Shown here piece after piece: positions 2,793 through 54,185 of a stretch of DNA of 61,784 nucleotides. Made by a program: the position numbers and the translations under genes. Numbering within the stretch: the first letter of the stretch is position 1; each line of letters opens with the position of its first letter. Source of the stretch: a virus. The DNA is taken from the IMG/VR virus record IMGVR_UViG_3300045988_109877, positions 1 through 61,784 of that record; one strand, written 5' to 3'. The notes under the pieces were generated by a model that was not told the DNA's origin, searched no databases, and saw nothing but the letters and a program-made list of their open reading frames with translations.

Positions 2793-3785
2793 CTATATTC
2801 CGTCTTCTCGATTACTATAACCTTGTCTGTTTCCATTTCCATTTTCCTCGTCTGCTATAGTTACTATACTTCCGTGGTTCAACATCACCGTCGGAGAGAT
2901 TCCGTCAGTACCGATGACGATACCGCTTATCTGACTCTTCGGATATAGCCTTCCGACACGGTTTATTGTTCTTGGATGTAATTGTCGTCGTTCCTCATCA
3001 CGCCTGCTTGGATTGTCTTCGCTATACCCCCCCCCCTCAGTGTACTCAAACTTGTGGTTGGTGGTGGTTTCAGCATTCCATTTCAGCCGCCCCAATATCA
3101 CGTCAGTCTTAAGATAGTATCTATCCTCGACACTCTCACCGTCGTGGTATGTGACAAGTACGTCACGGAGCCGCCGCTCCAACGGGAACGGCTGAGGAAA
3201 ATCATACTTGATGCCGCTCGGGAACAACTGTGGGAACTTGGCGGACGCATCCTTGCGGATGCTTAACGCGAACACCCTCACACGGTTCTGCGGAACACCG
3301 AAATCTTTGGCGTTTATCTTCTTCCAGTATGTCTTGTAGCCTTGTTCGTCAAGGTAGTCTATCCATCGCTGGAAGTCGGGCATAAACTTCTTGGAAGCCA
3401 ACGCCGCCACGTTCTCGAGTAAAAGGAATGACGGACGCTTCGTCTCTATCGCCCTCCTACACTCCCATAGCAATGATGAGCGCGAACCACTGCCTTCCTG
3501 CAAGCCTCGTTGAAGTCCGGCATTGCTGATGTCCTGACAAGGGAAGCTGTAGGTGAACAAGTCAAAGTCAGACACTCGCTCCCAATCGACCTTGCTTATG
3601 TCACCGTGGTTGCATTCGGCATACTCTGGAAACACGGCATTGTGGGCGGCTATTGCGTCATCGTCAATCTCGCTCCATCCGACAAGTTGGAAATCCGCAC
3701 CGCCAGCGTGGCGCCGTGCGACTCGGCGCAGAGCCATCATCTGCGAGCCATACCCGGCGAACGCCTCAAATACTTTTATTTTCAT
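2793..3785 (-). CDS. C5 DNA methyltransferase, N-terminal catalytic segment (motifs I-VIII) plus the first TRD-like modules
   Basis: FEAFAGYGSQ (motif I FxGxG), FPCQDIS (motif IV PCQ), LLLENV (motif VI), QNRVRVF (motif VIII), then GISPTVMLNHG. Confidence 0.85.
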   Translation of the reverse strand: MKIKVFEAFAGYGSQMMALRRVARRHAGGADFQLVGWSEIDDDAIAAHNAVFPEYAECNHGDISKVDWERVSDFDLFTYSFPCQDISNAGLQRGLQEGSGSRSSLLWECRRAIETKRPSFLLLENVAALASKKFMPDFQRWIDYLDEQGYKTYWKKINAKDFGVPQNRVRVFALSIRKDASAKFPQLFPSGIKYDFPQPFPLERRLRDVLVTYHDGESVEDRYYLKTDVILGRLKWNAETTTNHKFEYTEGGGYSEDNPSRRDEERRQLHPRTINRVGRLYPKSQISGIVIGTDGISPTVMLNHGSIVTIADEENGNGNRQGYSNREDGI

Positions 3786-9737: not shown

Positions 9738-9920
9738 CTATATAAGTTTTTTATCCGTTATTATACAAAGCACTTTCGTGGAGGCGATGAACGACGCCAA
9801 CGCCCCAGCCTTGATGAGAGCGAACGGCAATAGTGCCGCACTCTCGTCCTCGTTGCAGAGGAGGACGATGCTGACTCCCATCCACACGGTCATCAGCAGG
9901 TAGATGATTAGTTTCTTCAT
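9738..9920 (-). CDS. Small membrane protein (60 aa)
   Basis: There are two hydrophobic segments (LIIYLLMTVWMGVSIVLL and ALASFIA). Confidence 0.4.
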   Translation of the reverse strand: MKKLIIYLLMTVWMGVSIVLLCNEDESAALLPFALIKAGALASFIASTKVLCIITDKKLI

Positions 9921-9931
9921 ATATCTATTTT

Positions 9932-10551
9932 TTATAATTGTCTGATAAAAAGGAGACTATCCTCACAGACCGCCTCCCTGAAAAAAACATTGTCAATAAT
10001 GATAAGAAAGTAATAGTCGGCTCGGAGGTATCGAACCTCGCCCCGGTCGTAGAGAATTGGATAAGAGTTGTTAATAATTACCGACCGAAGCCTACCAGTG
10101 CGAGCCGTGATGCCTCCCATATCCGTCACGGACGGGGAGGTAATAAAATACAGTCATAAAAAGAAAGTGTGTGGCAGAGGGGGGAATCGAACCCCCTGCG
10201 ACACCAAGTCTCTAATGAGACCGCCAATGATTTGACGGCAGTCACGAGGAGGAATCGAACCTCCCCTCGGCACCTTGCCACCGCTCGGAATATATAGAGT
10301 GAGCAGTCAAATGCTCTGTAAGGAGTGCTGCTCGTTGGTTGGTTGTATACACTGCGGCGTCATAGGCTCGCCGCTTAGCCTCAGCACCTGTTGCATAGTC
10401 GGTGCTGACCACATCCGCAACGCCAACTCACACACTCGGCTGGAATGCTTATTGTGTGCGACTCGTTGCGGTCGTTATGCTTGTAGTCAATACGTCAATG
10501 TACTCTTTGTAGGCAGGATGGGAATCGAACCCATCCGTATACCATACTGCC
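9932..10551 (-). ncRNA. Candidate large structured RNA or degenerate tRNA-like cluster with four T-arm-like hairpins
   Basis: This 620-nt stretch has no convincing ORF and is GC-rich, unlike the other (AT-rich) intergenic regions. Minus-strand hairpins with GGTTCGAT(T/A)CC loops are at 10024-10040, 10180-10196, 10248-10264 and 10516-10536. I could not complete a cloverleaf for any of them. Confidence 0.35.
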
Positions 10552-11034
10552 TTATTCGTAGATGAATGCGTCGGAGCATTCGTGCCCGACCAAATCACAG
10601 AACTCCTGTGCTTCACGGAGTAGATGCACGTGTCTGGGGCTGTCCAATCTCAGCGAGATTGCCCACTCGCCGGAGATGTAGCGGTTGCAGTCGACATTTA
10701 GAGTGTAAAGCTTGCCGTCCTCACCGCGGACTTCGGTTGATACTTCGGTGTAATTGTCCTGCTCTCTGGCTATCGCCTCTCTGCACTCGCGGACTGCCTT
10801 CATTAATGACTCCCGCTTAATACCTATCGGCTTGCGTTCTTCCAGAGTCTTGATGTTCTCCTCGTATTCATCCGCCCATTCTATCAAGGCTTTTGCGGCA
10901 GCCTCGTCTGCTTCTCTCACTTTCGGTGCGCTCTCTCGGAGAGCCGCTTCAGCGGCTTTGTAGGCTTCGAGCCGCTTCGCCCATATAGAAGGACGGTATA
11001 TGCTTCTTACATCTTCTTCCATATCTATGACCAT
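10552..11034 (-). CDS. Hypothetical acidic protein (160 aa)
   Basis: ORF is co-oriented and has an E/A-rich helical N-terminal half. Confidence 0.5.
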   Translation of the reverse strand: MVIDMEEDVRSIYRPSIWAKRLEAYKAAEAALRESAPKVREADEAAAKALIEWADEYEENIKTLEERKPIGIKRESLMKAVRECREAIAREQDNYTEVSTEVRGEDGKLYTLNVDCNRYISGEWAISLRLDSPRHVHLLREAQEFCDLVGHECSDAFIYE

Positions 11035-11900: not shown

Positions 11901-11976
11901 TGCTAATTAGTTTTATATTAGTAACTTTGTGGTCTTAATAAGTATTCGCTTTACATCTTTGTTCTAGAATACGACA

Positions 11977-11984
11977 CAAAGATA
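11977..11984 (-). promoter_or_regulatory. Bacteroidetes-type -7 promoter box (TATCTTTG) for the leftward early operon
   Basis: The reverse complement of CAAAGATA matches TAnnTTTG. It lies about 77 nt upstream of the ATG at 11900 and within an imperfect dyad (ACATCTTTGT ... ACAAAGATATGT). Confidence 0.5.
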
Positions 11985-12007
11985 TGTAAAAATACCTATA
12001 CACGTAT

Positions 12008-12015
12008 TATATTTG
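12008..12015 (+). promoter_or_regulatory. Bacteroidetes-type -7 promoter box (TATATTTG) for the repressor-like gene
   Basis: It matches TAnnTTTG, lies 34 nt upstream of the ATG at 12049, and is bracketed by direct repeats GTAAAAATACC at 11986-11996 and 12030-12040. Confidence 0.5.
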
Positions 12016-12048
12016 CAAAGAAATTTTAGGTAAAAATACCAATTCAGA

Positions 12049-20170: not shown

Positions 20171-23100
20171 ATGTCAGACAGAATAAAGACGCTATACGGC
20201 CAATTAGTCAGAAATGGCTATGACTTAGGAGGATATGAGAAATTCAATGCGGCGATGCACGATAGCAACCGCAGACGCAGTCTGTATAATCAGCTTGTTG
20301 CGAACAGGGCAGACTTGGGTGGATATGAGAAATTCAGCAGCGTTGTTGAGACTGCACCACGCACCACCCCGAGCGCACCGCAGAAAAAGCGTGATGTAGT
20401 GGCGGACACCATCAATATGCTCCGCACTCCATCATCGCAGTACACGCGACCGCAACAGACACAACAGACTGCTCCGAAGAAAAAGTGGAGCAACGAAGTG
20501 GATGTGTACTCGTCAATGCCTGATGTGGTAAAGCAATATGCGCCTACACCGACACCGCTGAAGACAGACTCATCGGTGTCAATGCGTTCAGCCGCAACAT
20601 CAACGTGGAATGCCGCTGACAGAGCGACTCGTGAAGAATACGACAGACTGCATCCGAAGAAGGAGGAGTCTTTCTGGGAGAGAGCTGCCCGTCTGATGAC
20701 AGACGCAGAGATGGGGATGGGCAACGAGAATATGGAAAAGGCGACCGATATGCTTGCATCGCACTACAAGACTCACGATTTGCAGAAATTGTCCGACCAA
20801 GCGTGGAACGCACTTGGGGCAACGCAACAGAAAAACATCACAGACGAGGCTTATGATGAGCTGAAGCGACAATATCCGCAAGCGACAGAAAAGGAGCTGA
20901 GAGAAGCAGCGGCTAAGGTAGCGAGAGCCAAGAGCGACGAGACGATGTACAACCTTGCTGTGCAGAAGAATATGCCTGACAATGCCATCTCGTTCTTTGC
21001 GCGGAAGATGGCTGAGGGCAACTCTGTCGCAAGTCTGTTCACTGGACTCGCTCGACAAAAGGCAGGTACTGTCGGAGACTTGGCGGCTGAGACCGAAGCA
21101 AATGAGCGGTATGGCAAAAAGCACAAGGTGGCAGGTATCGCCGGTTCTGTAGTCGGTATGGCATCAGACCCACTGACGTATGCGGCTGGCGGTGTAGGCG
21201 GAGCGGCAACCAAAGGAGCGTTGTGGGCAGGAGGCAAGGTCTTGTCAGAGGCGGCAGCACGCAAGATGTCGCAGACACTCGGAGGCAAACTGCTCCTCGG
21301 TGCGGTAGGCGGAGCGGCTAACTTCGGCACGTTCGAGGCAGGCGGAGAGGCTTTCAACCAATACAAGTGGGGCGGTACTCTCGATGTAGACCCTGAGACA
21401 GGCAGATATGTCGTAGGCGATTTCTCGCTCGGCAAGGTGGCATCACAGATGGGACACGGACTCACGATGGGTGGACTTACGGGTGCATTCGGTACGTGGC
21501 TCGGCAATGTCAGCACCAAAGCGGCACAAGCCACGACAAGCACCTTAGGCAAACTTGGGGTGCGTGCAGGTGAGCTTGGAGTAGGGCTTGTCGGAGAGGG
21601 TACTATATTCGCCACGCCAGAGTTCATCACCACGTATGGCGATTACAACGACATCATCAAGTCTGTCTCCGATAAAAATTCCCCCAACTATATTGCCGAC
21701 GACAAAGAGCGGAGCAAGTATATTGCAGAGCTAAAGGCGCAGAGAGGAGAGCGGATGATGGATATATGGCAAGACAACCTTGCTATGATTGCAGGCTTCA
21801 AGGCACAGCACGCAATCAAGTCAGCAGGACGCACCATCTCCGAGCTGGCGGCATCACGCAGAGGCAAGGTCGGATTTGTGGAGCGCATGGGCAGGATGCT
21901 TGACGGGCATCCAAGCCTCGCCCTGAGCAAGGAGGAGCAGGCAGAGTTGGACAAGCACGGCTATGGAGACTTGACACAGATGGTCAAGGAGTACAAGGTG
22001 TATGCTCAAAAGGACGGAGACTTGCCGTACAACAAAATCACGCAGTTGCTCAACGACAAAAACGTAAGCGAGGCGGCAAGGGCAAAGATGTACTACTATG
22101 TCACAGGGCACTCCTTGCCAATGTCGGCAGTGATTGCGTCCAACGTCATTGACAATGGCGATAAGACATACACCGTGCAGTCGTTGGGCGACAATGGTGT
22201 AATCACAAGCAGGACTTACGGGAGCCGCAAGAGAGCGGACTATGAAAAGGCTCGCATCGATAGGCAAGCAGAGCTCAACGGAGTGGCGATGGCAGAGCAG
22301 ATGTTTGACAATATGGACAAAGCCGAGCGGCTAAAGGCTGTCTGCACAAGGCTCGCCCAAGACAAGGGAGTGTCGCCGGAGACACTGCTATGGCTGACAC
22401 ACAAAGACCCAAAGCAGATGACCGCCGCAGAAAAGCGGTGGATAAAAGAGATAGAGGCTGCCGCCAACGAGGATGCTCCGCAGGGCGAGAACGCCACAGT
22501 GAGACACATCAAGGGCGTCATTCTTGACGAGTATGGTGTTGATGTAGACAAGGCATTGCGCAAGGCGGCGGACAGCCGCACCGATGCGGAGAAAACAGCC
22601 ATATCGGCTTACAACAACGAATTGGTGCAGGCGGTCGCAGAGCGCAAAAATGCCATTAGCCAAGGCGAGACGACTGACGCATACAGACGTGGTTACGAGG
22701 CAGACACGCAAGGGATGCGTGATGCCTACGTGGCGCAGATGTATGAGCCGAGCGAGGATAATGCCGAGACACTTAGAGGGGTGGAGTCGCAAATCACGGA
22801 GAGTGCCAAATATCAAGCGGCATTGGAGAGAGACGAGCTAAAGCAGATGACACATAAGGACGGCTCCATACATCTTGCCACGCTTAAAGATAAAGACAAG
22901 GACGGCAATGGCAAGCAAGTGTACATAGTAGACGGCGACATTGTGATGAAGGAAGACGGGAGCGGCATTGACGCAGACGCAAGCAGTAAGAGCGTCATCA
23001 TATACGACCCGGCTACTGGAGAGAAAAAGATGGTGTCACCGACTGCGGTTGACGGCATAGAGTCGCTTGGCGAGGTCAAGACGGCAGAGCAGAGAGAGGC

Positions 23101-26100
23101 GGAGATAAACGCACATATGCAGGACACCATCCAGCGAAGCAAGGATTGGTTGGAGGGCAACGTAGCCAACCCTGTCGGTATGCAGATACAATTGGGTGAC
23201 GGACGTATCGCCACCATAGAGGCGATGCACGAAGACGGTAAGTCAGCCATAGCGACACTCCCTGACGGCACTCAGTTTTTGGTGCCGAATGACGTGTTGC
23301 AGAGAATCGTCAACAACGGGCAGTATGCGGATTACAAAGCGAGGAGAGATGCCGAGGCAAGCAAACGAGAGGCAGAGCAAGGCACCGAGAGCGCACCGGA
23401 GACAGCCACGGAAGGCGGACAGCCATTGCCGGAGGAGGCTTCCCCTAAAGAGGAGGAGCGCAGAGAGTATGCGCAAGGAGACGTGTTTGATGTCGTGGTG
23501 GACGGCAATAAGATGCACGCAGAGATAGTGTCACCAAAGGACGCAGACGGAAGGTTCGTTGTCAATGTGGATGATGGCGAGTCTATGCGCACTCTGTATG
23601 TCACCCCGGAGGAGTTGGCTGCGATGGAATACAGAGAGGAGCCATCGCCAAAGGCGGAAGAAACAAGGCTTGCCACCGAGGATTCCTCGGATAAGGCATT
23701 GGAGAGAGGAGAGACGCCGGAAGAATTGTTGCAGTCAATCAAGGAAAACGAGGCGGCAGTGGCGGAAGCACAGAGGACGGTCGATGCTTGGAAAGCCATC
23801 GTAGGAGAGAAGTCACGCAGAGAGGAAGCCGCCAAAGCGGAAGCGGAGCGCATAGCGACCGAGAAGGCGGAGGCGGAAAGGAAAGCCGCTGAGGAGCGTG
23901 AACGTGCCGAGGCGGAGGAAGAAGCTCGTGTTGAGGCAGAGAAGAAAGAGGCAGAGAGGATTGCCGCAGAAAAGGCTGAGGAGGAAGCTCGTGTTGAAGC
24001 CGAAAGGAAGGCAGAGGAGGAGCGCATTGCTAAGCAGAAGACTGAGGAGAAGGTTGACAGTCCGAAGATTGACAAGCAGGGGAATCCAATTGACGCTGAA
24101 GGCAGACTGATAACTGAGAAAGTTGAAGACATCAGCGATTTGTCTGACGATGATTTCAACAATCCGAAACGTTCTGTTGAATTGCCTAAGATACCGAAGA
24201 ATATAGATAACGCTCTCGGTGCGAACGGCAAGCCTGTTATTATCAAGAAGAATATATTCGAACGGAACAAGAACGCTCATTCAGACTTAACGGCAGAGCA
24301 GAGCCGAGAAATACTTAAAACAGCGCTGTACTCGGCTGATTTGTATGCTAAGAACCAAAAATCCAAGCGCCCATTCAATTGGGTAATTATCAAAACAAAA
24401 GACCACGATGGTAAAAACAAACTTGTCCTCTTGGAAGTTAACGACAACAAGGACAATGTGGAAATTGTGCATTGGCACTATCTTGATGACCGAGGCCTTG
24501 AAAAAATAAAAAAGCAAGCCGAACGTGAGGGCGGGCAACTCCTCATACTGCCTTCTGAAAAAGAAGAGGCTGGTGCCCTTTCCAGCCGTACATCCGACTT
24601 GCCTGCTGACAAAGGTAGTGAAAAGGCGGAGAAGAAGCAAGAAAAGCAGAGCGTTTTTGACAAGGCTAAGGAGATTGCCGACAAGGAGGAGAAGAAACGC
24701 AAGGCTGAGGCTGAGGATGACAAGCCAAAAGAACAGTCGCTGACTGAGGCGGAGCGCAAGGACGCCGAGGAGGTTGCAGGTGCGTTGGGCTATCGTGTGG
24801 AATGGGTGGACACGATGGCGGAGAACGGAACGATAGACGCGGACAAGAAAGTGATCCGTATCGCAAAGGATGCCGAGAACCCGTTGGTGCAGGTGCTGGG
24901 ACACGAGGTGGCGCACGGAGTGAAGCGGATGGACGGTGGCAAGTTCAAGGCTTTGCAGAAGGCGGCTATGGAAGTCGTCGGCGAGAAGGAATGGAATGAA
25001 CGCATCGAGAAGAAGCGCAATTTGAATGCTTATGCCGAGGGGAAACTCGCCGAGGAGGTGACGTGCGACATCGTTGGAGAGGCGTTGAACGACAAGGATG
25101 CGTTGAAGCGTCTTGCCGAGTCGCTGAGAGGAGAGAGGGGCATCCTTGCCCGTCTGCGTGACGCAGTGGTGAGGATGGTCGAGTATTTCAAGAACAGAGG
25201 CGACAAGGAAGGTGTGCGCAGGATGAAGGCCGCCGACAGACTTCTCGCAGAGTTTGAGAGTGCGTTGAAGGAGGGCGTTGCACCAGAGCAAGTCAAGCCT
25301 GAAGGTGTAGACCGCAGTGTAAGGGAGAGCCGAAGCGAGAAGACGGAGTTGACAGCGGAGGAGCGGGAACTGAGGGACAACCTTGTGGAGCGTATGCGCA
25401 AGGGTGGACTTGACGTGGTGACTGATTCGGAAGAGATGCAGAGAGTCATAGACACCGAGAACGAGCGGACAAGGATGATGGGTGCCGGTTCAGTCCGTGA
25501 GCATCGTGTGTACCACGGCAGCGGAGCGGACTTCGATGCTTTCGACCACTCGCACATGGGCGAGGGTGAAGGTGCGCAGGCTTACGGTTGGGGCACTTAT
25601 GTGACCGAGGTGGAAGGTATCGGCAGGACGTATGCTATTCAGAATACAACGAAGCACAACGATGCTTTACGTGCATTGCAACACGATGTAGATGCTATAT
25701 CTGACCAACTTAACAGACACCGGGATGATTTGAAGTATGACGAAGAACAGCTAAAACGTGCTAACGAATGGAGAGCCGAGGCTGAACTTGACTATGAATT
25801 GTTCAGAGATGAAGCTGAGAAATTAAAGGAAAAATATGGGGAGGCTTCTCCTAAATACCGAAATCATCTGTTTAATGACATCTATACAGATGAAATGAAA
25901 CGTGCTCAAAGTTCAGTTAAGAGCACAGAAAAGTCAATCCAGTATCGCAAGGAGAAAATAGCAGAGTTGGAAAAGGCATTAAAGGATAAGCAAGCGGAGA
26001 TTGATGAACTGCCGAAGGAGTTTCCACGCCACCTTTACACCGTAGAAATCCCCGATGACAACGGCAGCAACTATCTGGATTGGAATGGACACCCTGCTGA

Positions 26101-29100
26101 ATCTTTACTGAAAGATGTAGGTTCGTTTTTGGAGAGTGAAGGCTTTGAGAGGGTACAGGATGATAACCCTGCCAGATATGAGAAAGGCGAAAGCACCGTT
26201 GTTTTGAACCCCAATGCGACTGGAGCTGATTTGTATGCGGAATTGCGTGAGGCTCTTGGCAGTGACAAGAAAGCGTCACAAGCATTGGCTGAGTTAGGCT
26301 GTATTGGTATCAAATATCCTGCTGACAATATGCGAGGTGGCCGTGAGGATGGCGCAAAGAACTACGTTATCTTCAACGAGAATGATACGAAGATAACCGC
26401 CCATACACGCTTTCTGCGGACAGCAGGCGGAGAGGTGTACGGCTTGGTGAAGGACGGACGCATATACCTTGACCCAAAGGTGGCTACAGCGGAGACTGCG
26501 GTACACGAATACACGCATCTGTGGGGCGATATGCTGAGACGCAAAGACCCAGAGCAATGGAGCCACACGGTGAAGGAACTGAAGAACAGCGTTCTTTGGG
26601 AGGAAGTGAAAGAGTCGTATCCGGAGCTGAAGACCGATGACGAGATAGCGGACGAAGTGTTGTCGACGTTCAGCGGACGCAGAGGAGCGGAACGCTTGCG
26701 CGAGGAGGCACGTAGGGTTGCCGATGGCGAGGGCGGAGTGTTCACCAAGGCGAAGGCTATCGAGACGTTGGAGCGAGTGAAGGAAGCCATAGCGCGGTTC
26801 TGGGAAGGCGTGGCGAGGATGTTCGGCATCAACCGCTACCGCAGTGCCGAGGAGTTGGCTGATATGGCTATGAGGGACTTGCTTGACTCCAAGAATCCTA
26901 TGAAGGATGAGAGCGGAATGAGAAAGCGAGGAGAGGTTGGCGAGACGCTTGCCACGTCAGGCACATATTTCAGCGGAGGCGGACTGCTTGAAGCAGGTCT
27001 GAAAGGCGTGATAGACCCGAAGGTTGCGGTTGAGTTCAGCGAGAAGATAGCAGGAGTGTATGCCGACAACCACGGCAACCACATTGTTGTGGCAGACGTG
27101 AGGGATGTTGACCCCAAGAAACTTGTGGGCGCGGTTGACGGAGGCGAGGTGCAGTACTTCCACGCATCTCCGGTGTGCAAGAACTTCTCCAAAGCCAAGC
27201 GAGAGGGAGGCGAGGTTGAACTTGACAAGGAGACAGCGTTGTCGACAGCCGAGTTTATAGCGAAGACAAGACCGAAGGTGGTGACCATAGAGAACGTAAA
27301 AGGCTACCGCAACAGCGAGGCGTTGAAAATCATCACTGACGAGCTTACCCGTCAAGGATATGACTGGGATGCCGATGTGTACAACGCGGCAGACTACGGA
27401 GGCTATACGAAAAGAGAACGGCTGATAGTGCGAGCCAAGAGAGACGGCAAACTTCCTCCCAAGCCGGAGAAACTTCCCGAAGAACTGAGGAAGAAGGGAT
27501 GGTATAGCGCGGTGGAAGATTTGATTCCACACCTTGAAGAGAAAAAGACAGGTGTTCCGCAAGGCACTGACGAGCGGTTGAAGAACAGCGGAATAGACTA
27601 CCGCACCATTGACAAGCCTTTGTATGTGTTCGGACGTGGCTATGCCAACAAGACCGTAGGGCACGCTTTTGCCGATGAGCTTCTGCCAACGCTCACCACC
27701 GGAGGCGGAGACATCATAATAATGCCTGACGGCAGGGTGCTTAAAGCGTCACCGAGGGTGCTTGCGAGAGTCACTGGGCTGCCCGACACGTACAAGATGC
27801 CTGAGACAGACCAATTGTCGCACACCATAGTCGGCAACGGCATCCCAACGCAGTTGACCGAAGGTGTCATCGCTCCTTTGCTTGACAATGCCATTCCGTC
27901 TGCCGAGCGAGCCACCAAGCGTGAGAGCGTGTTTGACGTGGCGGATAGAGTGTCGCAGAACCTTGAGGAGCGGACGAGGGCGATGGCTGAACGCATTGCA
28001 GAACAACCTGTTGAAGAAATAAACAATCGGTTTAATGAGGAGCTGGAGAAGTACCAAAACAACGAATTGCCAAAAGGCCATCGCTTTGAATTAGGTATGC
28101 CATCAGCAGAGTTGCAAAGTGCTGGTTTCCCAACGCTCCCAATAAGTATGCGTTCTTCGTTGTTGGCGAAAAAAGCCGGAGCGGAGAGACATCCTTTTGC
28201 CCCCACTGACTTACGAGACTTGGTAAACGCAATACAGAAACCTATAGCTATCTTCAATTACTCTAAAAATAATATGCGCAATCTGATTGTAGATGTATCG
28301 CGCGGAGGAAAGCATTTCTTGGTTGGAGTGACACTCAACTATAAAGCAGACAATATAGAAATAAACAGTGTTTCTGGATTATTTCCTAAAGAGAACCACG
28401 AATGGATAAAATGGATTCAAGATGGAAAAGTATTGCGAATAGACCAAAAAGAAAAGGTTCAAGACCTGATTAACAGTCTACGGACTAATCCCGCTGAGTC
28501 TGAAAGAATCGGTTTGAACCTTGATGATGTGGCAAAGAAAGTGAAAGATTTTGAAAATCCCAAGCTTTTTGATGGAAAAATTTCAGAAGTAGACAAAAAG
28601 GGTTCAGATTCAACCGACCGCTCCGTCAGAGAGAATCCCAAAAACGAGGATAAGCCACGCTTCAGCAGAAAGCCGGGCGAGAGCATCTTCGACTATGCGT
28701 CACGTGTGTCGGAGGACGTGGATAGAAGCGTGAGAGAAAGAGTAAGCGCACGGGACGAGTATGAGAAGAAGGTCAAGAGCAAAGGCTTCCAAACGAAGGA
28801 GGCGTTGCAGAACAGTATGCTCGGACTACAGGAGTTTATGCTTGCAATAGACCACGCATCGGGCAACAAGCGGTACATAGAGGACATTCCCGACTTTGAG
28901 AATCCGATACTCGGAGAGAACCGCCTGTCGTCGGTGAACAAGGAGGAGATGCACCAAGTTGCCAAGACGCAATTCAAGCCGTTGATGTCGGCAGTGGCCA
29001 AACTGAGCGGCAACGGCAAGGAGAGCGGAGAATTGTACGACTATATGTTCGCCAAGCACGGACTTGAACGTGATGCCGTGATGCGGCAGAGAGAGGCTCA

Positions 29101-31834
29101 GAAAGAGTTTGACAAGTACCAAAAGGCAAATCCCAAAGGAACTAAAACGATTGGGGATTTCGTTGCAAGCCTTGAAGGCAAAGACTATGCAGGACTTACG
29201 GCATTGACGGCAGAAGACGGCAGGGTGAAGTCGATACAATCGCAGATAGACGCCATAGACGAGCAGATGAAGGCTACAGACGACCAATTGTTGCTCCGTA
29301 AACTCGGTGGTCAGAAGAAGCGGTTGAAGGTGGATTTGCTCAACGCCGCAAGGGATGCCGCCGATGACATCCGCAAGGCTTTTGAAAACAATCCGAGCCA
29401 TGATCGGTCAGACATAAATGAATTGTGGAGTCGAGTAAACGAAGTGAACGGCAACACAATTAGGAAGTTGTATGAGAGCGGTATGCTCACGAAGGAGGCA
29501 TACAACGACATCAGCAGTATGTATACGAATTATATCCCTATGAGGGGATTCGACCAAACGACAAGCGCGGATGCCTACGCTTATCTGACGCACGGCGACA
29601 GCGCATTCAACGCACCGATAAAGACAGCCAAAGGGCGCAGCTCCAAGGCTGACAATCCTATAGCATATATGCAGGCGATGGCGGAAAGTGCGATAATGCA
29701 GGGCAACCGCAACGTATTGGTGAAACAAAAGATGTTGAACTTTGTGCGCAACCATCCGAGCGACCTTGCGAGTGTCAGCGATGTGTGGTTGCAATATGAC
29801 TCGGTTGCAGATGAGTGGAAGCCGGTGTTTCCCGACAATATCGGTGCCAATGACAGCGCATCTGTGGTGGCGAAAAAGATGGAGGCATTCGAGGATAAAA
29901 TGAAACAGATGGCAGAGAAACACCCGGACTTGGTGCAAAGAAGCAACGAAGCACCTGACATCCCATATAAGGTGGTAGAGAAAGGGCAGTTGAACGAACA
30001 CCAAGTGCTTGTGAAGCAAAATGGCAAGTCTTACATCATCACAGTCAACGGCAGCCCAAGAGCGGCACAGGCAGCGAATGGCTTGACGAATCCGGACACA
30101 GACCTTACGGGCGCAGTCGGTAAAGTCTTCGAGGGAGCCGAGGCGTTGAACAGACAATTGTCCTCCTTATACACCACGTTGAACCCCGACTTCATTGGCT
30201 CAAACTATGTGCGAGATGCCTTGTACTCAAATACAATGGTGTACGTCAAGGAAGGAGCTAAGTATGGTGGTTCCTTTAATCTCAATTTCGCCAAATACAA
30301 TCCAGCGGAAATGGCGAACCTATATGCAAGTTACAACAAAGGCAGCCTTGACACATCCAATGAAACGCATAGACTGTTTTTGGAGTTTATGCAGAATGGC
30401 GGAGAAACTGGCTTCGTGAACCTAAAGCAGATAGAGAAGAGGAAGTCGGAGATAGCGAAAGCAATCAAGCGGGATGGGAGAATATCCGCGGCACAAATTT
30501 GGGGCGGTTTGAGCGATGCCGTTGATTTCGCCAACAGGGCAGTAGAGAACAGCGCAAGGTTTGCGGCATATGTCACGTCACGGAAGAGCGGACGCAGTGT
30601 AGGAAGGTCAGTATATGACGCAAAAGAGATTTCTGTCAACTTCAACAGAAAGGGAAGCGGCTCTAAATTTATGGGAGCGGAAGGACAGACCAAGGCAGGA
30701 AACGCCGCCGCTTTTGTGTCGGGAGCCGGAAGAGGCTTGTATATCTTTTGGAACGCAGGTCTTCAAGGACTCACTAACTTCTCAAGACAGATAGGGAGAC
30801 ATCCTGGCAGAGCGTTGACATTGGCGTCATTGCTGTTTGGCTTTGGTGCATTGATGTCGTATTTAGGGAATAGAGACGATGACGATGAAAACAATTACTT
30901 CAATCTTCCCAAGTATATCCGCAGAAGCAACGTCTGCTATAAGATTGGAGATTTGTTTGTCACGATTCCCCTTCCCGTTGAGTATCGGTCATTCTATGGA
31001 CTTGGAGAATTGGCGAGCAGCACACTTGCCGGAAAAGAGGACGGAACGACAAAAGACATCGCCAAAGAAGCGGTTTCACAAGTATCGCAGTTGTTCCCTA
31101 TTGACTTTGCAGAAGGAGGCGGAGGACTGCACGCATTGATTCCGAGTGCCGTAAAGCCGATAGTAGAGGCAGAAACCAACACCGCATGGACAGGTCTGCC
31201 GATTTATAAGGACAATGATTTCAACAAGAATATGCCAGAGTACACGAAAGTGTATAAGACCGCCAATAGGCATCTTGTTGAGATAGCGAGAGCGTTGAAC
31301 GATGCCACAGGAGGCAACAAGTACAAAAAAGGCTTTATAGACATAAATCCTGCGAAAATGGAATATGTCCTCAAGGGTATGCTCGGAGGAGCGTTCAGTT
31401 TCCCAGACAAACTTGTCAAAACAACAGAGACGATTATGGGCGACCGTGAATTTGATTGGCGGAACACACCTTTTGCCAACAGATTCGTGAAGAACGCAGA
31501 CGAGAGGACGGAGTACAAGTCTTTGAACGAACAATACTTTAAGTTGAAAGATGAAATGGATGTCGTCAAACAACAGCTGAAAGGCTTTGAAAAAGAAGCT
31601 GATGCCGGGAACGAAAAATACGAAAAGGCTCTGCTTCAATTGGAGGACAGCAAAGATTATGAAAGGTTGGAATTATTCAAGGATTATGAGAAGGAACTTA
31701 AAGGCTTGAACGATGAACTCAAGGAACTAAGGATGTCTCCTGATTATGACAAGGCAGAAGAAAAAGAGTTGCAAAAAGAGATTGCGGAACAACAGAGACA
31801 ATTGATCGACGAGATGAGAGAAATTAAAAAATAA
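20171..31834 (+). CDS. Giant polyvalent protein (3887 aa) with multiple enzymatic modules
   Basis: This is an uninterrupted 11.66-kb ORF. Features by coordinate:
- HEVAH at 24902.
- YHGSGADFDAFD...GWGTYVTE at 25511-25600 (ART-like H/Y).
- HEYTH at 26504.
- C5-MTase motifs at 26950-27900.
- Two related domains of about 130 aa at 24170-24560 and 28010-28460.
- E/A/K coiled coil at 23800-24060.
- Gly-rich hydrophobic segments at 21125-21640 and 30690-30870. Confidence 0.85.
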   Translation: MSDRIKTLYGQLVRNGYDLGGYEKFNAAMHDSNRRRSLYNQLVANRADLGGYEKFSSVVETAPRTTPSAPQKKRDVVADTINMLRTPSSQYTRPQQTQQTAPKKKWSNEVDVYSSMPDVVKQYAPTPTPLKTDSSVSMRSAATSTWNAADRATREEYDRLHPKKEESFWERAARLMTDAEMGMGNENMEKATDMLASHYKTHDLQKLSDQAWNALGATQQKNITDEAYDELKRQYPQATEKELREAAAKVARAKSDETMYNLAVQKNMPDNAISFFARKMAEGNSVASLFTGLARQKAGTVGDLAAETEANERYGKKHKVAGIAGSVVGMASDPLTYAAGGVGGAATKGALWAGGKVLSEAAARKMSQTLGGKLLLGAVGGAANFGTFEAGGEAFNQYKWGGTLDVDPETGRYVVGDFSLGKVASQMGHGLTMGGLTGAFGTWLGNVSTKAAQATTSTLGKLGVRAGELGVGLVGEGTIFATPEFITTYGDYNDIIKSVSDKNSPNYIADDKERSKYIAELKAQRGERMMDIWQDNLAMIAGFKAQHAIKSAGRTISELAASRRGKVGFVERMGRMLDGHPSLALSKEEQAELDKHGYGDLTQMVKEYKVYAQKDGDLPYNKITQLLNDKNVSEAARAKMYYYVTGHSLPMSAVIASNVIDNGDKTYTVQSLGDNGVITSRTYGSRKRADYEKARIDRQAELNGVAMAEQMFDNMDKAERLKAVCTRLAQDKGVSPETLLWLTHKDPKQMTAAEKRWIKEIEAAANEDAPQGENATVRHIKGVILDEYGVDVDKALRKAADSRTDAEKTAISAYNNELVQAVAERKNAISQGETTDAYRRGYEADTQGMRDAYVAQMYEPSEDNAETLRGVESQITESAKYQAALERDELKQMTHKDGSIHLATLKDKDKDGNGKQVYIVDGDIVMKEDGSGIDADASSKSVIIYDPATGEKKMVSPTAVDGIESLGEVKTAEQREAEINAHMQDTIQRSKDWLEGNVANPVGMQIQLGDGRIATIEAMHEDGKSAIATLPDGTQFLVPNDVLQRIVNNGQYADYKARRDAEASKREAEQGTESAPETATEGGQPLPEEASPKEEERREYAQGDVFDVVVDGNKMHAEIVSPKDADGRFVVNVDDGESMRTLYVTPEELAAMEYREEPSPKAEETRLATEDSSDKALERGETPEELLQSIKENEAAVAEAQRTVDAWKAIVGEKSRREEAAKAEAERIATEKAEAERKAAEERERAEAEEEARVEAEKKEAERIAAEKAEEEARVEAERKAEEERIAKQKTEEKVDSPKIDKQGNPIDAEGRLITEKVEDISDLSDDDFNNPKRSVELPKIPKNIDNALGANGKPVIIKKNIFERNKNAHSDLTAEQSREILKTALYSADLYAKNQKSKRPFNWVIIKTKDHDGKNKLVLLEVNDNKDNVEIVHWHYLDDRGLEKIKKQAEREGGQLLILPSEKEEAGALSSRTSDLPADKGSEKAEKKQEKQSVFDKAKEIADKEEKKRKAEAEDDKPKEQSLTEAERKDAEEVAGALGYRVEWVDTMAENGTIDADKKVIRIAKDAENPLVQVLGHEVAHGVKRMDGGKFKALQKAAMEVVGEKEWNERIEKKRNLNAYAEGKLAEEVTCDIVGEALNDKDALKRLAESLRGERGILARLRDAVVRMVEYFKNRGDKEGVRRMKAADRLLAEFESALKEGVAPEQVKPEGVDRSVRESRSEKTELTAEERELRDNLVERMRKGGLDVVTDSEEMQRVIDTENERTRMMGAGSVREHRVYHGSGADFDAFDHSHMGEGEGAQAYGWGTYVTEVEGIGRTYAIQNTTKHNDALRALQHDVDAISDQLNRHRDDLKYDEEQLKRANEWRAEAELDYELFRDEAEKLKEKYGEASPKYRNHLFNDIYTDEMKRAQSSVKSTEKSIQYRKEKIAELEKALKDKQAEIDELPKEFPRHLYTVEIPDDNGSNYLDWNGHPAESLLKDVGSFLESEGFERVQDDNPARYEKGESTVVLNPNATGADLYAELREALGSDKKASQALAELGCIGIKYPADNMRGGREDGAKNYVIFNENDTKITAHTRFLRTAGGEVYGLVKDGRIYLDPKVATAETAVHEYTHLWGDMLRRKDPEQWSHTVKELKNSVLWEEVKESYPELKTDDEIADEVLSTFSGRRGAERLREEARRVADGEGGVFTKAKAIETLERVKEAIARFWEGVARMFGINRYRSAEELADMAMRDLLDSKNPMKDESGMRKRGEVGETLATSGTYFSGGGLLEAGLKGVIDPKVAVEFSEKIAGVYADNHGNHIVVADVRDVDPKKLVGAVDGGEVQYFHASPVCKNFSKAKREGGEVELDKETALSTAEFIAKTRPKVVTIENVKGYRNSEALKIITDELTRQGYDWDADVYNAADYGGYTKRERLIVRAKRDGKLPPKPEKLPEELRKKGWYSAVEDLIPHLEEKKTGVPQGTDERLKNSGIDYRTIDKPLYVFGRGYANKTVGHAFADELLPTLTTGGGDIIIMPDGRVLKASPRVLARVTGLPDTYKMPETDQLSHTIVGNGIPTQLTEGVIAPLLDNAIPSAERATKRESVFDVADRVSQNLEERTRAMAERIAEQPVEEINNRFNEELEKYQNNELPKGHRFELGMPSAELQSAGFPTLPISMRSSLLAKKAGAERHPFAPTDLRDLVNAIQKPIAIFNYSKNNMRNLIVDVSRGGKHFLVGVTLNYKADNIEINSVSGLFPKENHEWIKWIQDGKVLRIDQKEKVQDLINSLRTNPAESERIGLNLDDVAKKVKDFENPKLFDGKISEVDKKGSDSTDRSVRENPKNEDKPRFSRKPGESIFDYASRVSEDVDRSVRERVSARDEYEKKVKSKGFQTKEALQNSMLGLQEFMLAIDHASGNKRYIEDIPDFENPILGENRLSSVNKEEMHQVAKTQFKPLMSAVAKLSGNGKESGELYDYMFAKHGLERDAVMRQREAQKEFDKYQKANPKGTKTIGDFVASLEGKDYAGLTALTAEDGRVKSIQSQIDAIDEQMKATDDQLLLRKLGGQKKRLKVDLLNAARDAADDIRKAFENNPSHDRSDINELWSRVNEVNGNTIRKLYESGMLTKEAYNDISSMYTNYIPMRGFDQTTSADAYAYLTHGDSAFNAPIKTAKGRSSKADNPIAYMQAMAESAIMQGNRNVLVKQKMLNFVRNHPSDLASVSDVWLQYDSVADEWKPVFPDNIGANDSASVVAKKMEAFEDKMKQMAEKHPDLVQRSNEAPDIPYKVVEKGQLNEHQVLVKQNGKSYIITVNGSPRAAQAANGLTNPDTDLTGAVGKVFEGAEALNRQLSSLYTTLNPDFIGSNYVRDALYSNTMVYVKEGAKYGGSFNLNFAKYNPAEMANLYASYNKGSLDTSNETHRLFLEFMQNGGETGFVNLKQIEKRKSEIAKAIKRDGRISAAQIWGGLSDAVDFANRAVENSARFAAYVTSRKSGRSVGRSVYDAKEISVNFNRKGSGSKFMGAEGQTKAGNAAAFVSGAGRGLYIFWNAGLQGLTNFSRQIGRHPGRALTLASLLFGFGALMSYLGNRDDDDENNYFNLPKYIRRSNVCYKIGDLFVTIPLPVEYRSFYGLGELASSTLAGKEDGTTKDIAKEAVSQVSQLFPIDFAEGGGGLHALIPSAVKPIVEAETNTAWTGLPIYKDNDFNKNMPEYTKVYKTANRHLVEIARALNDATGGNKYKKGFIDINPAKMEYVLKGMLGGAFSFPDKLVKTTETIMGDREFDWRNTPFANRFVKNADERTEYKSLNEQYFKLKDEMDVVKQQLKGFEKEADAGNEKYEKALLQLEDSKDYERLELFKDYEKELKGLNDELKELRMSPDYDKAEEKELQKEIAEQQRQLIDEMREIKK
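26950..27900 (+). other. Embedded C5 cytosine methyltransferase domain within the polyvalent protein
   Basis: YFSGGGLLEAG (motif I), HASPVCKNFS (variant of motif IV with Cys retained), VVTIENVKG (motif VI), YTKRERLIVRA (motif VIII-like), VGNGIPTQL (motif X). Confidence 0.7.
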
Positions 31835-52690: not shown

Positions 52691-53941
52691 TCAGTCAAGC
52701 AAGTCCACAAGCTCCTTCTTGATGTCGTCGTCGATGTTGCGGTAACGAGAGAAAGCCTTGCTTCCATCCTTGTGACCGGACATAGAGCCGACAAGATTGG
52801 GGTCTTTGACCTGTTTGTAAAGATTGCCTATGAACGTCCTGCGTGCAAGATGGGAGGAGGCTATCTCGTTGATTGGTCTGCGCACCTCGCATCCTTTGGA
52901 AGAATCATAGACAAGCACCGACCTTGTTATGCCGCAGATGGTGAAGAACCGCTTTATGGCTGCGTTATATGCTTGGTCTGCGATGAAAGGGAACAGCCTG
53001 CCGTCCTTGTCCACTCCCATATATTTCTTCACAAGCATCCGCGCGCTGTTGTTCAGCGGCACTCTGACGATGTCGGTATGCTCGCTCCGTGTCTTCCGGG
53101 GGATATACTCCACGGCTCCGTTGACAATATTGTCGGTAGTCAGCCTTGTAAGGTCGGACACACGGCAGCCTATGCAGCACTGGAACAGGAAAATATCTCT
53201 CTGCACCTCGAGGGACGGGTAGTCGGACAAGTCGTAGTTGGCGATGCGGTTGCGTTCCGCTATGCTTATATAATAAGGTGTGCCGTATCTCTCCGCTTTC
53301 ACCGACACATTGTCGGTCGGAGAGCGGTCGATGATCCCCAGCGTCACCATCTCCTTGAACAAAGAACGCAGACGTTTGAATGTAGTGCATATATAGTTTG
53401 CTCCGCCAATCTTCTCCACATCCTTGATGTAAGACAGGAATTTCCTAACGTCATCCTCCGACATCGTTTTCAAAGTAAGACTGTATGAAGGGGAGTATTT
53501 ACGTCTGAACACCTCGAAACTTTTCAGTTTGTTCTTCAGCACCTCATATCCTCGCAACGTTCCCAAAGCAATGTTCTTGTGGGCGAGCAGGTCGGCAAAT
53601 TCTTCATCGAGAACCATCGGTTCTTCCTTGTCTTCCGGATTTAGAACGTCCTCCACCATTCTCTGCAAGTCACGGCTTGTGCGTATGTCCGCATAGTGGG
53701 AGGAGTAGACACGCATAATGATGTCCTTGAGATAAGCCACCTTGTTGTCCACATCTTCCCTATAAGCTATCTGGCACATCGCACGCTGTTTGATGCATTC
53801 TTTTTTGGAATCCCATAGGGATGGGTACACCATAATATGGCTGATGAAGTATAACTGCACCTTGCGCCCGTCACTCAGACGGAAGCGTATTTTGACCTCG
53901 GAATCTTTGGTCGTTCGGATGAATGCTTTGATTGTTGCCAT
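52691..53941 (-). CDS. int: Tyrosine recombinase / phage integrase (Bacteroides type)
   Basis: I chose the start MATIKAFIRTTKDSEVKIRFRL (arm-binding N-domain). The catalytic residues are CRVSDL (Arg), SHLARRTF (HxxR), SGH and FSRY (Tyr). Confidence 0.85.
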   Translation of the reverse strand: MATIKAFIRTTKDSEVKIRFRLSDGRKVQLYFISHIMVYPSLWDSKKECIKQRAMCQIAYREDVDNKVAYLKDIIMRVYSSHYADIRTSRDLQRMVEDVLNPEDKEEPMVLDEEFADLLAHKNIALGTLRGYEVLKNKLKSFEVFRRKYSPSYSLTLKTMSEDDVRKFLSYIKDVEKIGGANYICTTFKRLRSLFKEMVTLGIIDRSPTDNVSVKAERYGTPYYISIAERNRIANYDLSDYPSLEVQRDIFLFQCCIGCRVSDLTRLTTDNIVNGAVEYIPRKTRSEHTDIVRVPLNNSARMLVKKYMGVDKDGRLFPFIADQAYNAAIKRFFTICGITRSVLVYDSSKGCEVRRPINEIASSHLARRTFIGNLYKQVKDPNLVGSMSGHKDGSKAFSRYRNIDDDIKKELVDLLD

Positions 53942-53958
53942 ACGCAAAGGTATGAAAC

Positions 53959-54185
53959 TTGCACAACACTTGCACAACATTTGCACAACATATTTGTTAT
54001 TGGTTGTAATTATTTAATACTATCTGTATAATCAAACATTTCAAAATGCTGATTGTTAAGTGATATAAAAGCAAATCAAGTGAACGGCTAACAAACAACG
54101 TTGTCCGGGTAAGACAACAAGGGTAGTTTGACTATCAGAAAGTTATGGTGGATGTGCGGTGGATTTGCACAACATTTGCACAACA
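53959..54185. promoter_or_regulatory. attP-like region: five direct TTGCACAACA repeats in two clusters flanking an AT-rich segment of about 175 bp
   Basis: The copies are at 53959, 53970, 53981, 54165 and 54176, with an 11-nt period inside each cluster. The region lies directly upstream of int. Confidence 0.5.

Follow-up and report, generated by a model that had tools for sequence, protein, structure and literature searches.

A conserved minus-strand array of anticodon-less tRNA-like elements around a structured core RNA in a temperate Bacteroidales podophage

What does the longest stretch without an open reading frame (ORF) encode in the phage genome of IMG/VR record IMGVR_UViG_3300045988_109877? 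We analysed positions 1 to 61,784 of this record (the window, 61,784 nt), and a survey of its gaps identified 9921-10551, read on the minus strand, as the longest ORF-free gap of the 61.8-kb sequence (631 nt), in keeping with an earlier note that had singled the region out as long and devoid of ORFs. The note had also called it GC-rich, which stands relative to the other intergenic gaps, most of which lie at 0.21-0.41, but not relative to the genome mean (0.49 vs 0.488). The four hairpins with canonical tRNA T-arm loops that had been reported there were all recovered: the pattern GGTTCGAWW has four matches window-wide, all at 10029-10531 and all on the minus strand. A stricter T-arm scan, requiring a 5-bp stem, a G53-C61 pair and a TTCRANN loop, recovered three of these four sites and found nothing comparable elsewhere in the whole window. 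Compared with shuffled sequences, the entire gap has a low folding energy (z = -6.5). We find that the gap encodes a conserved non-coding RNA module on the minus strand, namely an array of tRNA-like elements (TLEs) around a structured core. In substance this bears out the earlier suggestion of a novel phage RNA or tRNA-mimic cluster, as the module is conserved, strand-specific and structured and belongs to no Rfam family. To our knowledge, no array of anticodon-less tRNA mimics has previously been described from a temperate-phage early operon, and literature searches returned no description of such a phage TLE array.

The ORFs inside the gap are short and overlapping only. Coding on the opposite strand, in an ORF of 84-96 aa at 10275-10565, was considered and ruled out, because relatives carry 1-nt indels there; the sequence is also nearly invariant, without third-position variation. 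On the minus strand, the gap is preceded by a 160-aa ORF (orf160) and followed by a 60-aa ORF (orf60), past which lie genes for Erf, a RecE-like exonuclease and DnaB.

The TLEs share one plan, in which an acceptor stem is joined to a canonical T-arm through either a short linker with GG or a D-like hairpin (Table 1). In alignments of the window with its relatives the anticodon arm is absent from every TLE, as had been noted for the hairpins of the window. The TLEs thus keep only the top half and elbow of a tRNA: a coaxial stack of acceptor and T-arm, a canonical T-loop, and a GG linker or mini D-hairpin. The stacked acceptor and T stems amount to 12-13 bp in TLE-A, TLE-B and TLE-C and to 11 bp in TLE-D. 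When TLE-A, TLE-B, TLE-C and TLE-D were folded in isolation, acceptor plus T-arm was the minimum-energy structure of each. For TLE-A (z = -2.6) this is the minihelix that had been proposed at 10551-10509; intact TLE-B copies of relatives fold as acceptor, mini-hairpin and T-arm (z = -2.9), and TLE-D adopts its proposed fold (z = -3.5). Compared with a canonical tRNA, all four have an acceptor stacked on a T-arm with a T54-Psi55-C56-R57-A58 loop, and none has a 5-bp anticodon stem with a 7-nt anticodon loop. No TLE encodes CCA; the trailers read N73-C-A/T and resemble the trailer of the host tRNA-Ser gene, G-CAA.

The first paired base of TLE-A is the last A of the orf160 stop codon, and in relatives the element starts in or just past the stop codon. 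TLE-A was found in all related loci that cover its position, with the T-loop variants TTCGATT, TTCAATT, TTCGAGT, TTCGAGC, TTCAACT, TTTGATT and GTCAATT; its stems are nearly invariant across relatives and show no covariation. TLE-D is intact in the window, where the acceptor strands 10107-10101 and 10024-10018 pair perfectly, and its 10-bp stem closes an AU-rich loop of ~30-32 nt with the conserved motifs AUUAUUAACAA, CUUA and UCUCU. A covariance model of TLE-D matches intact TLE-B copies weakly, over its full length.

Relatives were collected by protein-anchored searches (15 IMG/VR contigs and 11 ENA/Logan loci), and an exact 20-mer from the core retrieved 31 human-gut metagenome loci along with three chance matches. 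The module order is common to all three sets, variants with deletions, duplications, insertions or truncations being a minority. The canonical order is TLE-A, an optional hairpin, the core, TLE-B, hairpin H1, TLE-C, hairpin H2, TLE-D, and a terminator-like hairpin with a U-tract, and in each locus that reaches far enough the array sits between orf160 and orf60. Canonical TLE-B comprises GAGCGGT, the mini-hairpin GGCA-AGG-TGCC, the T-arm and ACCGCTC, and canonical TLE-C comprises GGCAGAG, the D-arm GCGG-TGGTT-CCGC, an AT-rich insert of ~65 nt, the T-arm and CTCTGCC. Two segments are optional. A 15-nt insertion directly after TLE-A forms a hairpin (GCCTCTnnGAGGC, GCCTCTTAGAGGC or GCCTCTCTGAGGC) and occurs in about one third of relatives (for example contigs L082, L117 and L120) and not in the window; the ~70-nt segment B', also present in about one third of relatives, lies between two copies of the T-arm GGGGAGGTTCGATTCCTCC. 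The AT-rich insert of TLE-C (for example L090:6960-7030) contains a 12-13-nt unit, TGAGTTTAGTAAT, in one to three tandem copies depending on the genome. Within a unit, TGA, TAG and TAA share one frame; successive copies therefore place stops in all three frames.

Table 1. Positions and composition of the array, its neighbouring genes and a related integration junction (window positions unless a contig is named)
Feature	Position	Strand	Description	Basis
orf160	10552..11034	minus	upstream partner; beside the array in every locus extending that far; 55-99% aa identity	
TLE-A	10511..10552	minus	acceptor AGGCA(G)/(C)TGCCT, 10-nt GG linker TATGGTATAC, 7-bp T-arm GGATGGG-TTCGATT-CCCATCC, then ACA	sequence
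Core RNA, ~220 nt	10287..10510	minus	short spacer, then predicted multi-branch fold, between TLE-A and TLE-B	
TLE-B, truncated	10248..10286	minus	5' acceptor GAGCGGT, D-like mini-hairpin GGCA-AGG-TGCC, T-arm GGGAGG-TTCGATT-CCTCC	alignments
B' insert	10197..10247	minus	TCGTGAC, hairpin GACTGCC-GTCAAATCATT-GGCGGTC, hairpin GTCTC-ATTA-GAGAC, then CTTGGTGTCGCA	
TLE-C, 3' half	10172..10196	minus	T-arm GGGGG-TTCGATT-CCCCC, 3' acceptor CTCTGCC, discriminator A	
Hairpin H2	10113..10140	minus	CCTCCC...TCCGTGACGGA...GGGAGG, internal loop, GNRA-type tetraloop; 5 nt upstream of TLE-D	
TLE-D	10014..10107	minus	7-bp acceptor CGGCTCG/CGAGCCG, linker CACTGGTAG (GG conserved), 10-bp stem, T-arm GAGG-TTCGATA-CCTC, discriminator A	
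Terminator-like hairpin	9947..9978	minus	GGGAGGCGGTCTGTGAGGATAGTCTCC then TTTTT; module end, 27 nt before the orf60 start codon; part of the minimum-energy structure	
orf60	9738..9920	minus	small, very hydrophobic 60-aa protein, directly downstream; 85-97% aa identity	
tRNA-Ser(GGA) junction evidence	L095:5974-6063, L158:7388-7476		close relative integrated	

For none of the four hairpins had a matching 5' acceptor strand been reported. For the hairpin at 10040 this did not hold, as it belongs to TLE-D, whose acceptor is complete and covaries; for those at 10264 and 10196 it is correct in the window, because the window carries a deletion. In most relatives their partners are present, as AGCGGTG...CACCGCT and GGCAGAG...CTCTGCC, respectively. 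The window and contigs L087 and L117 each carry a deletion that runs from the second T-arm copy associated with B' to the T-arm of TLE-C. It removes the 3' acceptor strand of TLE-B, (C)ACCGCT(C), together with hairpin H1 and the 5' half of TLE-C with its D-arm and AT-rich insert, so that B' in the window joins the TLE-C T-arm directly. Such T-arm-to-T-arm deletions have at least two different junctions, that of the window differing from that of L117, and the window allele is rare (3 of ~55 distinct contigs). As read from the aligned alleles, recombination from T-arm to T-arm made the window allele. Other rearrangements include an extra stand-alone tandem T-arm hairpin in L119 (1986-2851), a duplication of B3-H1-C-H2-D5 in L138, and a deletion of the core 3' end and TLE-B in L150. 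Together with the window allele, these indicate that the repeated T-arms are recombination substrates, and they provide a clear natural example of repeat-mediated remodelling at an RNA locus. In L123, a 154-aa ORF call starts in the TLE-C insert and crosses TLE-D.

Selection acts on this region at the level of RNA structure. In a MAFFT alignment of 16 TLE-D variants, 99.1% of cells were paired, and six pairs had changed on both sides. Since a MAFFT alignment of 19 variants misregistered two stem types, a model-guided alignment was used in its place (52 hits, 34 of them distinct), in which 98.9% of cells were paired and seven double-sided pairs were spread over the acceptor, the long stem and the T stem. 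Slid controls gave 32-50% pairing. Diverged versions have CGGCACG/CGTGCCG in place of CGGCTCG/CGAGCCG as acceptor, CGGCAGACGG/CCGTTTGTCG or CGATGGACGG/CCGTCTGTCG in place of CTTCGGTCG/CGACCGGGG as long stem, and GGGG/CCCC in place of GAGG/CCTC as T stem. Since G-U accounts for half of the pairs of the long stem in many sequences, only the minus strand can form the structure. Intact TLE-C copies have 100% of cells paired, and their T stem shows two compensatory changes (GGGGG/CCCCC to GCAGG/CCTGC).

The T-loops vary according to the tRNA rule. Across elements they read TTCGATT, TTCAATT, TTCGAGT, TTCGATA, TTCAACT, TTCGACT and others, with TTTGATT, GTCAATT, TTAGATT and TTTGAGT as rare forms; U55 and A58 never change, only purines occur at position 57, U54 and C56 are replaced only rarely, and positions 59-60 vary freely. 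Each linker or D-like loop retains its GG across relatives. Hairpin H2 is a paralogue of H1, the GNRA-capped hairpin that precedes TLE-C in relatives. Its loop varies among GTGA, GCGA and GTGAC, and compensatory changes occur in the inner stems of both hairpins (TCC/GGA to TCT/AGA in H2, CCC/GGG to TCC/GGA in H1). In variants of the terminator-like hairpin, too, the stem is preserved (G-T to G-C) and the loop stays of the GNRA type (GTGA to GCGA); a simple terminator scan gave no call at this hairpin.

The core is 94.6-98.6% identical to its relatives, in which orf160 is 72-78% and TLE-D 70-73% identical. Indels of 1 nt among relatives exclude a coding sequence on both strands. The predicted helices comprise the outer ACATT/AGTGT and CCGCAACG/CGTTGCGG, which enclose CGCACAC/GTGTGTG, CAGCACC/GGTGCTG and GCGGCG/CGCCGC; 3' of the multi-branch fold, a CA-rich single strand, ATACAACCAACCAAC, is followed by the hairpin GAGCAG/CTGCTC. 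The stems CGCAACG/CGTTGCG, CAGCACC/GGTGCTG and GAGCAG/CTGCTC that had been picked out by eye are present and are predicted to pair. By RNAalifold, the core fold has 53 pairs with no double-sided change, and all five one-sided changes (5/5) lead to a G-U wobble. The fold is plausible but unproven, because no in-stem change is compensatory. More conserved than the surrounding proteins over dozens of human-gut samples, the core is a strong candidate for a functional RNA of no known family.

Searches for known RNA families gave no assignment. ARAGORN in default, intron (up to 120 nt) and mitochondrial modes found no tRNA and no tmRNA in the window, and no tRNA in 21 related loci apart from one host tRNA-Ser; at relaxed thresholds the calls were mutually inconsistent and had inconsistent anticodons. 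No Rfam family reached the gathering threshold in the window or in one intact relative, only local T-arm matches (17-nt pieces) appeared at E <= 10, and the array is absent from Rfam 15. The intron-containing tRNA that had been offered as an interpretation was rejected. In unlimited-intron mode, a 'tRNA-Arg, 289-nt intron' was called in L118, with many mismatched pairs and in only one of three relatives, and no Intron_gpI match was obtained at E <= 10 in the window or the intact relative. Against tmRNA, no TLE has G3:U70, and neither a tag reading frame nor pseudoknots were found; the Rfam tmRNA models matched only the 17-nt T-arm, with scores of 10-17 bits where the gathering score is 47, and a single permuted-tmRNA call by ARAGORN -ps80, in L118 and in neither the window nor L090, was treated as spurious. 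A Y RNA (YrlA) was rejected, with no Rfam match at E <= 10 and no TROVE/Rsr among the best 25 of 27 Pfam families over the 74 window ORFs. GOLLD and ROOL models gave no match at the gathering threshold or at E <= 10, and the modules are independently gained and lost. An attP site or tRNA 3' fragment was rejected on the grounds that intact TLEs own both acceptor strands and that, in the related contig L095, the prophage junction lies at tRNA-Ser(GGA), ~4.4 kb from the array. A C4-type antisense RNA had neither an Rfam match nor a significant complementary target; when the loops of TLE-D and the core and the insert of TLE-C were compared with the rest of the window, perfect complements did not exceed 9-12 nt.

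The TLEs keep what tRNA-end-processing enzymes read and drop what decoding needs, and acceptor/T-arm minihelices suffice as substrates for bacterial RNase P and the CCA-adding enzyme. Compared with a processing signal of the mascRNA type, they have a stack of ~12 bp, an intact elbow and a place at RNA boundaries. Our preferred explanation, which we hold tentatively and judge to have somewhat less than an even chance, is that host RNase P, RNase Z and the CCA-adding enzyme recognise the TLEs, and that the resulting cuts punctuate the early transcript and free the core together with small tRNA-like RNAs. The position of the TLEs at module borders supports this proposal, as TLE-A starts in the orf160 stop codon, TLE-A and TLE-B bracket the core, and TLEs also abut the hairpins. 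Host enzymes would be needed, as the phage appears to lack its own: a Pfam scan of the 74 ORFs gave, among the best 25 of 27 families, no RNA-processing enzyme or RNA-binding partner. In this pathway, the module would share a transcript with the early genes of the leftward operon in a temperate Bacteroidales podophage. Each TLE would be cut at its 5' edge by RNase P and past the discriminator by RNase Z, where the CCA-adding enzyme would act next. The cuts would sever the downstream RNA from the orf160 message at the stop codon and set the core free from between TLE-A and TLE-B, leaving stable small tRNA-like RNAs, among which TLE-D would display its conserved AU-rich loop (AUUAUUAACAA...CUUA...UCUCU). 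The terminator-like hairpin would end the module before orf60 and erf, with control of read-through as a compatible rival. The promoter evidence is consistent with this arrangement. The sole upstream minus-strand -7 box of the Bacteroidetes type lies at 11984-11977, none occurs on that strand between it and the array, and within the region itself no Bacteroidetes-type promoter was found, nor did a sigma-70 scan give a call for the relevant strand. Going by the -7 boxes, the array probably belongs to the leftward early transcript. More broadly, it is possible but doubtful that the TLEs represent a new class of phage anticodon-less top-half mimics that engage host tRNA biology, either as decoys for toxins or enzymes or as recruiters of RNase P, RNase Z and the CCA-adding enzyme.

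Several observations weigh against processing by host tRNA enzymes. Co-transcription, cleavage by RNase P and RNase Z and the role of the released RNAs are all points that we infer. The array family occurs in a single phage lineage only, in samples from the human gut: a blastn search with the region in 50,697 phage records gave no match, a protein-anchored scan of GTDB genomes gave nothing, the core 20-mer across IMG/VR returned only the same 15 contigs, and the TLE-D model matched none of 72 unrelated loci. With so narrow a family, the covariation rests on few clades, and the core, with no compensatory change by RNAalifold, has a fold that is predicted only. The T stem of TLE-D has only 4 bp, which gives the stack of 11 bp. 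In the window, L087 and L117, TLE-B has no 3' strand, so that the 3' boundary of the core would not be set by an intact TLE, and in the window only a predicted hybrid closing stem, GUGGCA/UGCCAC, is left to it. Where B' is present, its two T-arm copies can instead pair with one another as a single long helix (z = -5.8), and an alternative helix between T-arms is also possible in the window hybrid (z = -3.8). A significant target for a released RNA was not found either. The best duplex of the TLE-D loop, a 29-bp interrupted pairing of -28.5 kcal/mol with 61394-61345 (minus) inside a 199-aa ORF (60853-61452), was matched by 2 of 39 shuffled queries and is probably due to chance.

The main rival of processing, and an unlikely one in our estimate, is that the TLEs act early in infection as decoys or sponges for a host factor that reads the top half of tRNA, sparing the tRNAs of the host. 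Candidate targets are toxins that alter or cleave the CCA end, the acceptor stem or the T-loop, among them CapRel-, MenT- and AbiEii-type nucleotidyl- or pyrophosphotransferases and RNases acting on the T-loop or acceptor, and also T-arm enzymes, for example TrmA and TruB. The array does lie in the early operon, a typical place of counter-defence genes, in a phage without its own RNA enzyme; it keeps only top-half determinants, and several copies occur per genome, with T-arm hairpins duplicating on their own in L119 and L138. Yet the copy number is low (3-6), some elements are dispensable in natural variants, the core rather than the TLEs is the most conserved part, and no defence system or toxin is linked to the array. 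A decoy that has no anticodon loop could not work against anticodon nucleases, which are the best known of the defences directed at tRNA. The region might instead be a cis-acting leader of the delayed-early genes, in which antitermination or attenuation governs read-through into orf60, erf, exo and the replication genes and the TLEs are accessory, as at HK022 put or lambda nut/tL1. Its position mirrors the lambda order pL - N - tL1 - recombination genes, with the terminator-like hairpin and U-tract just before orf60 and erf and no Bacteroidetes -7 box between the early promoter region and erf, and the GNRA-capped hairpins recall protein-binding hairpins of the boxB kind. We nevertheless consider this quite unlikely, as an antiterminator protein was not identified, the hairpin went uncalled in the terminator scan, and the conserved, covarying canonical T-loops and acceptor stems would be left unexplained; a leader is not exclusive of processing by host enzymes.

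The stability of the whole region (z = -6.5), its phage origin and its several GNRA tetraloops and T-loops, which are common tertiary motifs, would suit one large ornate RNA of 630-830 nt like GOLLD or ROOL, with the T-loops serving as tertiary-contact modules. This interpretation, which the earlier note had entertained, is very unlikely. No large RNA of Rfam, GOLLD and ROOL included, was matched, every TLE is closed by an acceptor stem of its own, and in close relatives the elements are independently inserted, deleted, duplicated or fused while AT-rich spacers and inserts vary in length; such modular gain and loss argues against one integrated fold. Decay of tRNA genes, or att-scar fragments without function, is highly improbable and already largely refuted for the family, as compensatory changes maintain an architecture that is not that of tRNA and the region is more conserved than the neighbouring genes. 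The note's idea of decayed tRNAs is half true of the window, where two elements are truly truncated, and phages often carry tRNA 3' fragments at attP; TLE-C, moreover, resembles a tRNA with its anticodon arm replaced. Unlike att fragments, however, intact elements have both acceptor strands, and the array is internal to the prophage, the L095 junction lying ~4.4 kb away beside an integrase gene and the window integrase ~42 kb off with no T-arm nearby. A DNA-level element, such as a replication origin or a recombination hot spot that inverted repeats and AT-rich sequence would form beside erf and dnaB, seems hardly credible to us. The array does adjoin recombination and replication genes, the AT-rich inserts contain 12-13-nt tandem repeats of variable copy number, and T-arm repeats clearly mediate rearrangements. 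However, the G-U pairs that make up half of the TLE-D long stem in many sequences would turn into C-A mismatches if the opposite strand or a cruciform were to fold this way, the T-loop positions vary by tRNA rules, and the one-sided changes in the core go to wobble pairs.

The window genome is that of a temperate podophage of human-gut Bacteroidales, with genes for a P22-like portal, a capsid protein of the SU10 type, an integrase and helix-turn-helix (HTH) proteins that resemble repressors. Its nearest cultured phages are the Bacteroides phages BS-TP4 and BKO1-TP3, with 69-71% aa identity in the capsid protein. The array is present in neither; the early operon of BS-TP4 has no comparable gap, and the TLE-D model gives no match in that phage. 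The product of orf160 belongs to no Pfam or PHROG family. Its AlphaFold2 model (pLDDT 81.6) has three long helices followed by a three-stranded antiparallel sheet with a short helix, and has no significant match in PDB, the best being Borrelia Pur-alpha, a single-strand nucleic-acid binder (E = 0.3); going by this model, the protein is a possible RNA partner. orf60 lies beside the array in nearly every locus extending that far, even where later genes differ, as in L120 and L121, where the gene after orf60 encodes an SbcC-like ATPase and not Erf.

In L095, a 130-kb contig, the prophage junction lies at the 3' end of a host tRNA-Ser(GGA) gene, beside the integrase gene and ~4.4 kb from the array. 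The T-arm of this host tRNA, GCGAGTTCGAATCTCGC, is unlike that of any TLE. An empty site occurs in the metagenome-assembled genome of an uncultured Bacteroidales (CP091725.1, 2.79 Mb), where homology stops inside the tRNA 3' end. The window integrase (52691-53986) has no T-arm near it and differs from that of the L095-type relative, as does the gene order, indicating that integration modules have been swapped within the lineage.

Other features of the window were recorded in passing. An AT-rich (0.26 GC) divergent gap at 11901-12048 separates the leftward early operon from rightward HTH repressor-like genes and carries -7 boxes on both strands (TATCTTTG at 11984-11977, minus; TAACTTTG and TATATTTG, plus); it is probably a genetic switch. 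Beside the portal gene, a single ORF of 3887 aa spans 20171-31834 (plus), with a BS-TP4 counterpart of 5391 aa annotated as hypothetical, and its giant product may be an ejection protein or lie inside the virion. Somewhere in the window proteome there is a T7_gp14-like Pfam match. The window also encodes two C-5 cytosine DNA methylases and one N6/N4 methylase (2793-3785 minus and other ORFs), and relatives additionally carry PAPS-reductase-like, amidoligase/GATase_4 and WYL genes, which suggests cargo for DNA modification or counter-restriction.

Should RNase P and RNase Z cut the TLEs, Bacteroidales phages would use 'tRNA punctuation' to divide a polycistronic early RNA and produce stable small RNAs, and the elements could serve as compact processing handles for Bacteroides synthetic biology. 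If they are decoys, they would constitute an RNA-based counter-defence against toxins aimed at the tRNA acceptor end. A class of top-half mimics would in turn be a bacterial-virus counterpart of mascRNA and TMER biology in a very abundant gut phylum.

Mimicry of tRNA is known from plant RNA viruses, herpesviruses, mammalian long non-coding RNAs, tmRNA and Y RNAs. In mascRNA/MALAT1, MEN-beta and engineered tRNA-gRNA arrays, a tRNA-like fold within a longer transcript is a signal for RNase P and RNase Z, as proposed here for the TLEs, setting the ends of flanking RNA and yielding a small CCA-tailed RNA without aminoacylation or decoding. Those systems are eukaryotic or synthetic and use full cloverleaves with an anticodon-like arm, whereas the TLEs form an array in a bacterial host and either lack the arm or have a long stem or AT-rich insert in its place; with the Rfam mascRNA-menRNA model, only a sub-threshold local match was obtained (14.5 bits against a gathering score of 42.5). 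The TMERs of MHV68 are likewise viral arrays of non-decoding tRNA-like elements that act as RNase Z processing handles for adjacent small RNAs, a role only proposed for the TLEs, and differ in belonging to a eukaryotic virus and in having RNA polymerase III promoters inside the tRNA-like part, a full cloverleaf and microRNA hairpins as cargo.

Among bacterial RNAs, the tRNA-like domain of tmRNA has the same wiring as TLE-D: an acceptor, a single-stranded D-loop analogue without D stem, a long helix at the position of the anticodon arm, and a T-arm leading to the 3' acceptor strand. TLE-D differs in lacking G3:U70, pseudoknots and a tag reading frame, and its internal loop is only ~30 nt. YrlA resembles the array as a non-coding RNA, sometimes encoded by phages, with a tRNA-like module of acceptor-like stem, T-arm and D-loop contacts, but its tRNA-like domain is internal and closed by a Ro-binding stem, with the gene beside rsr, whereas the acceptor stems of the TLEs have free ends. 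The C4 RNAs of P1 and P7 and the CI RNA of satellite P4 are cut from an early or immunity transcript by RNase P. They resemble our proposal as small structured RNAs of temperate phages that are matured by the host enzyme from such a transcript, and differ from the TLEs in being single, ~70-80 nt long, without a canonical T-arm and engaged in antisense pairing within their own transcript. The proposed release of the core is closest in kind to that of 3'ETS-leuZ and ITS-metZW, functional RNAs that lie between tRNA-shaped elements and are freed by RNase P, E and Z processing; there the flanking elements are genuine tRNAs and the RNAs short spacers, whereas the core is the most conserved part of the module, highly structured and flanked by anticodon-less mimics.

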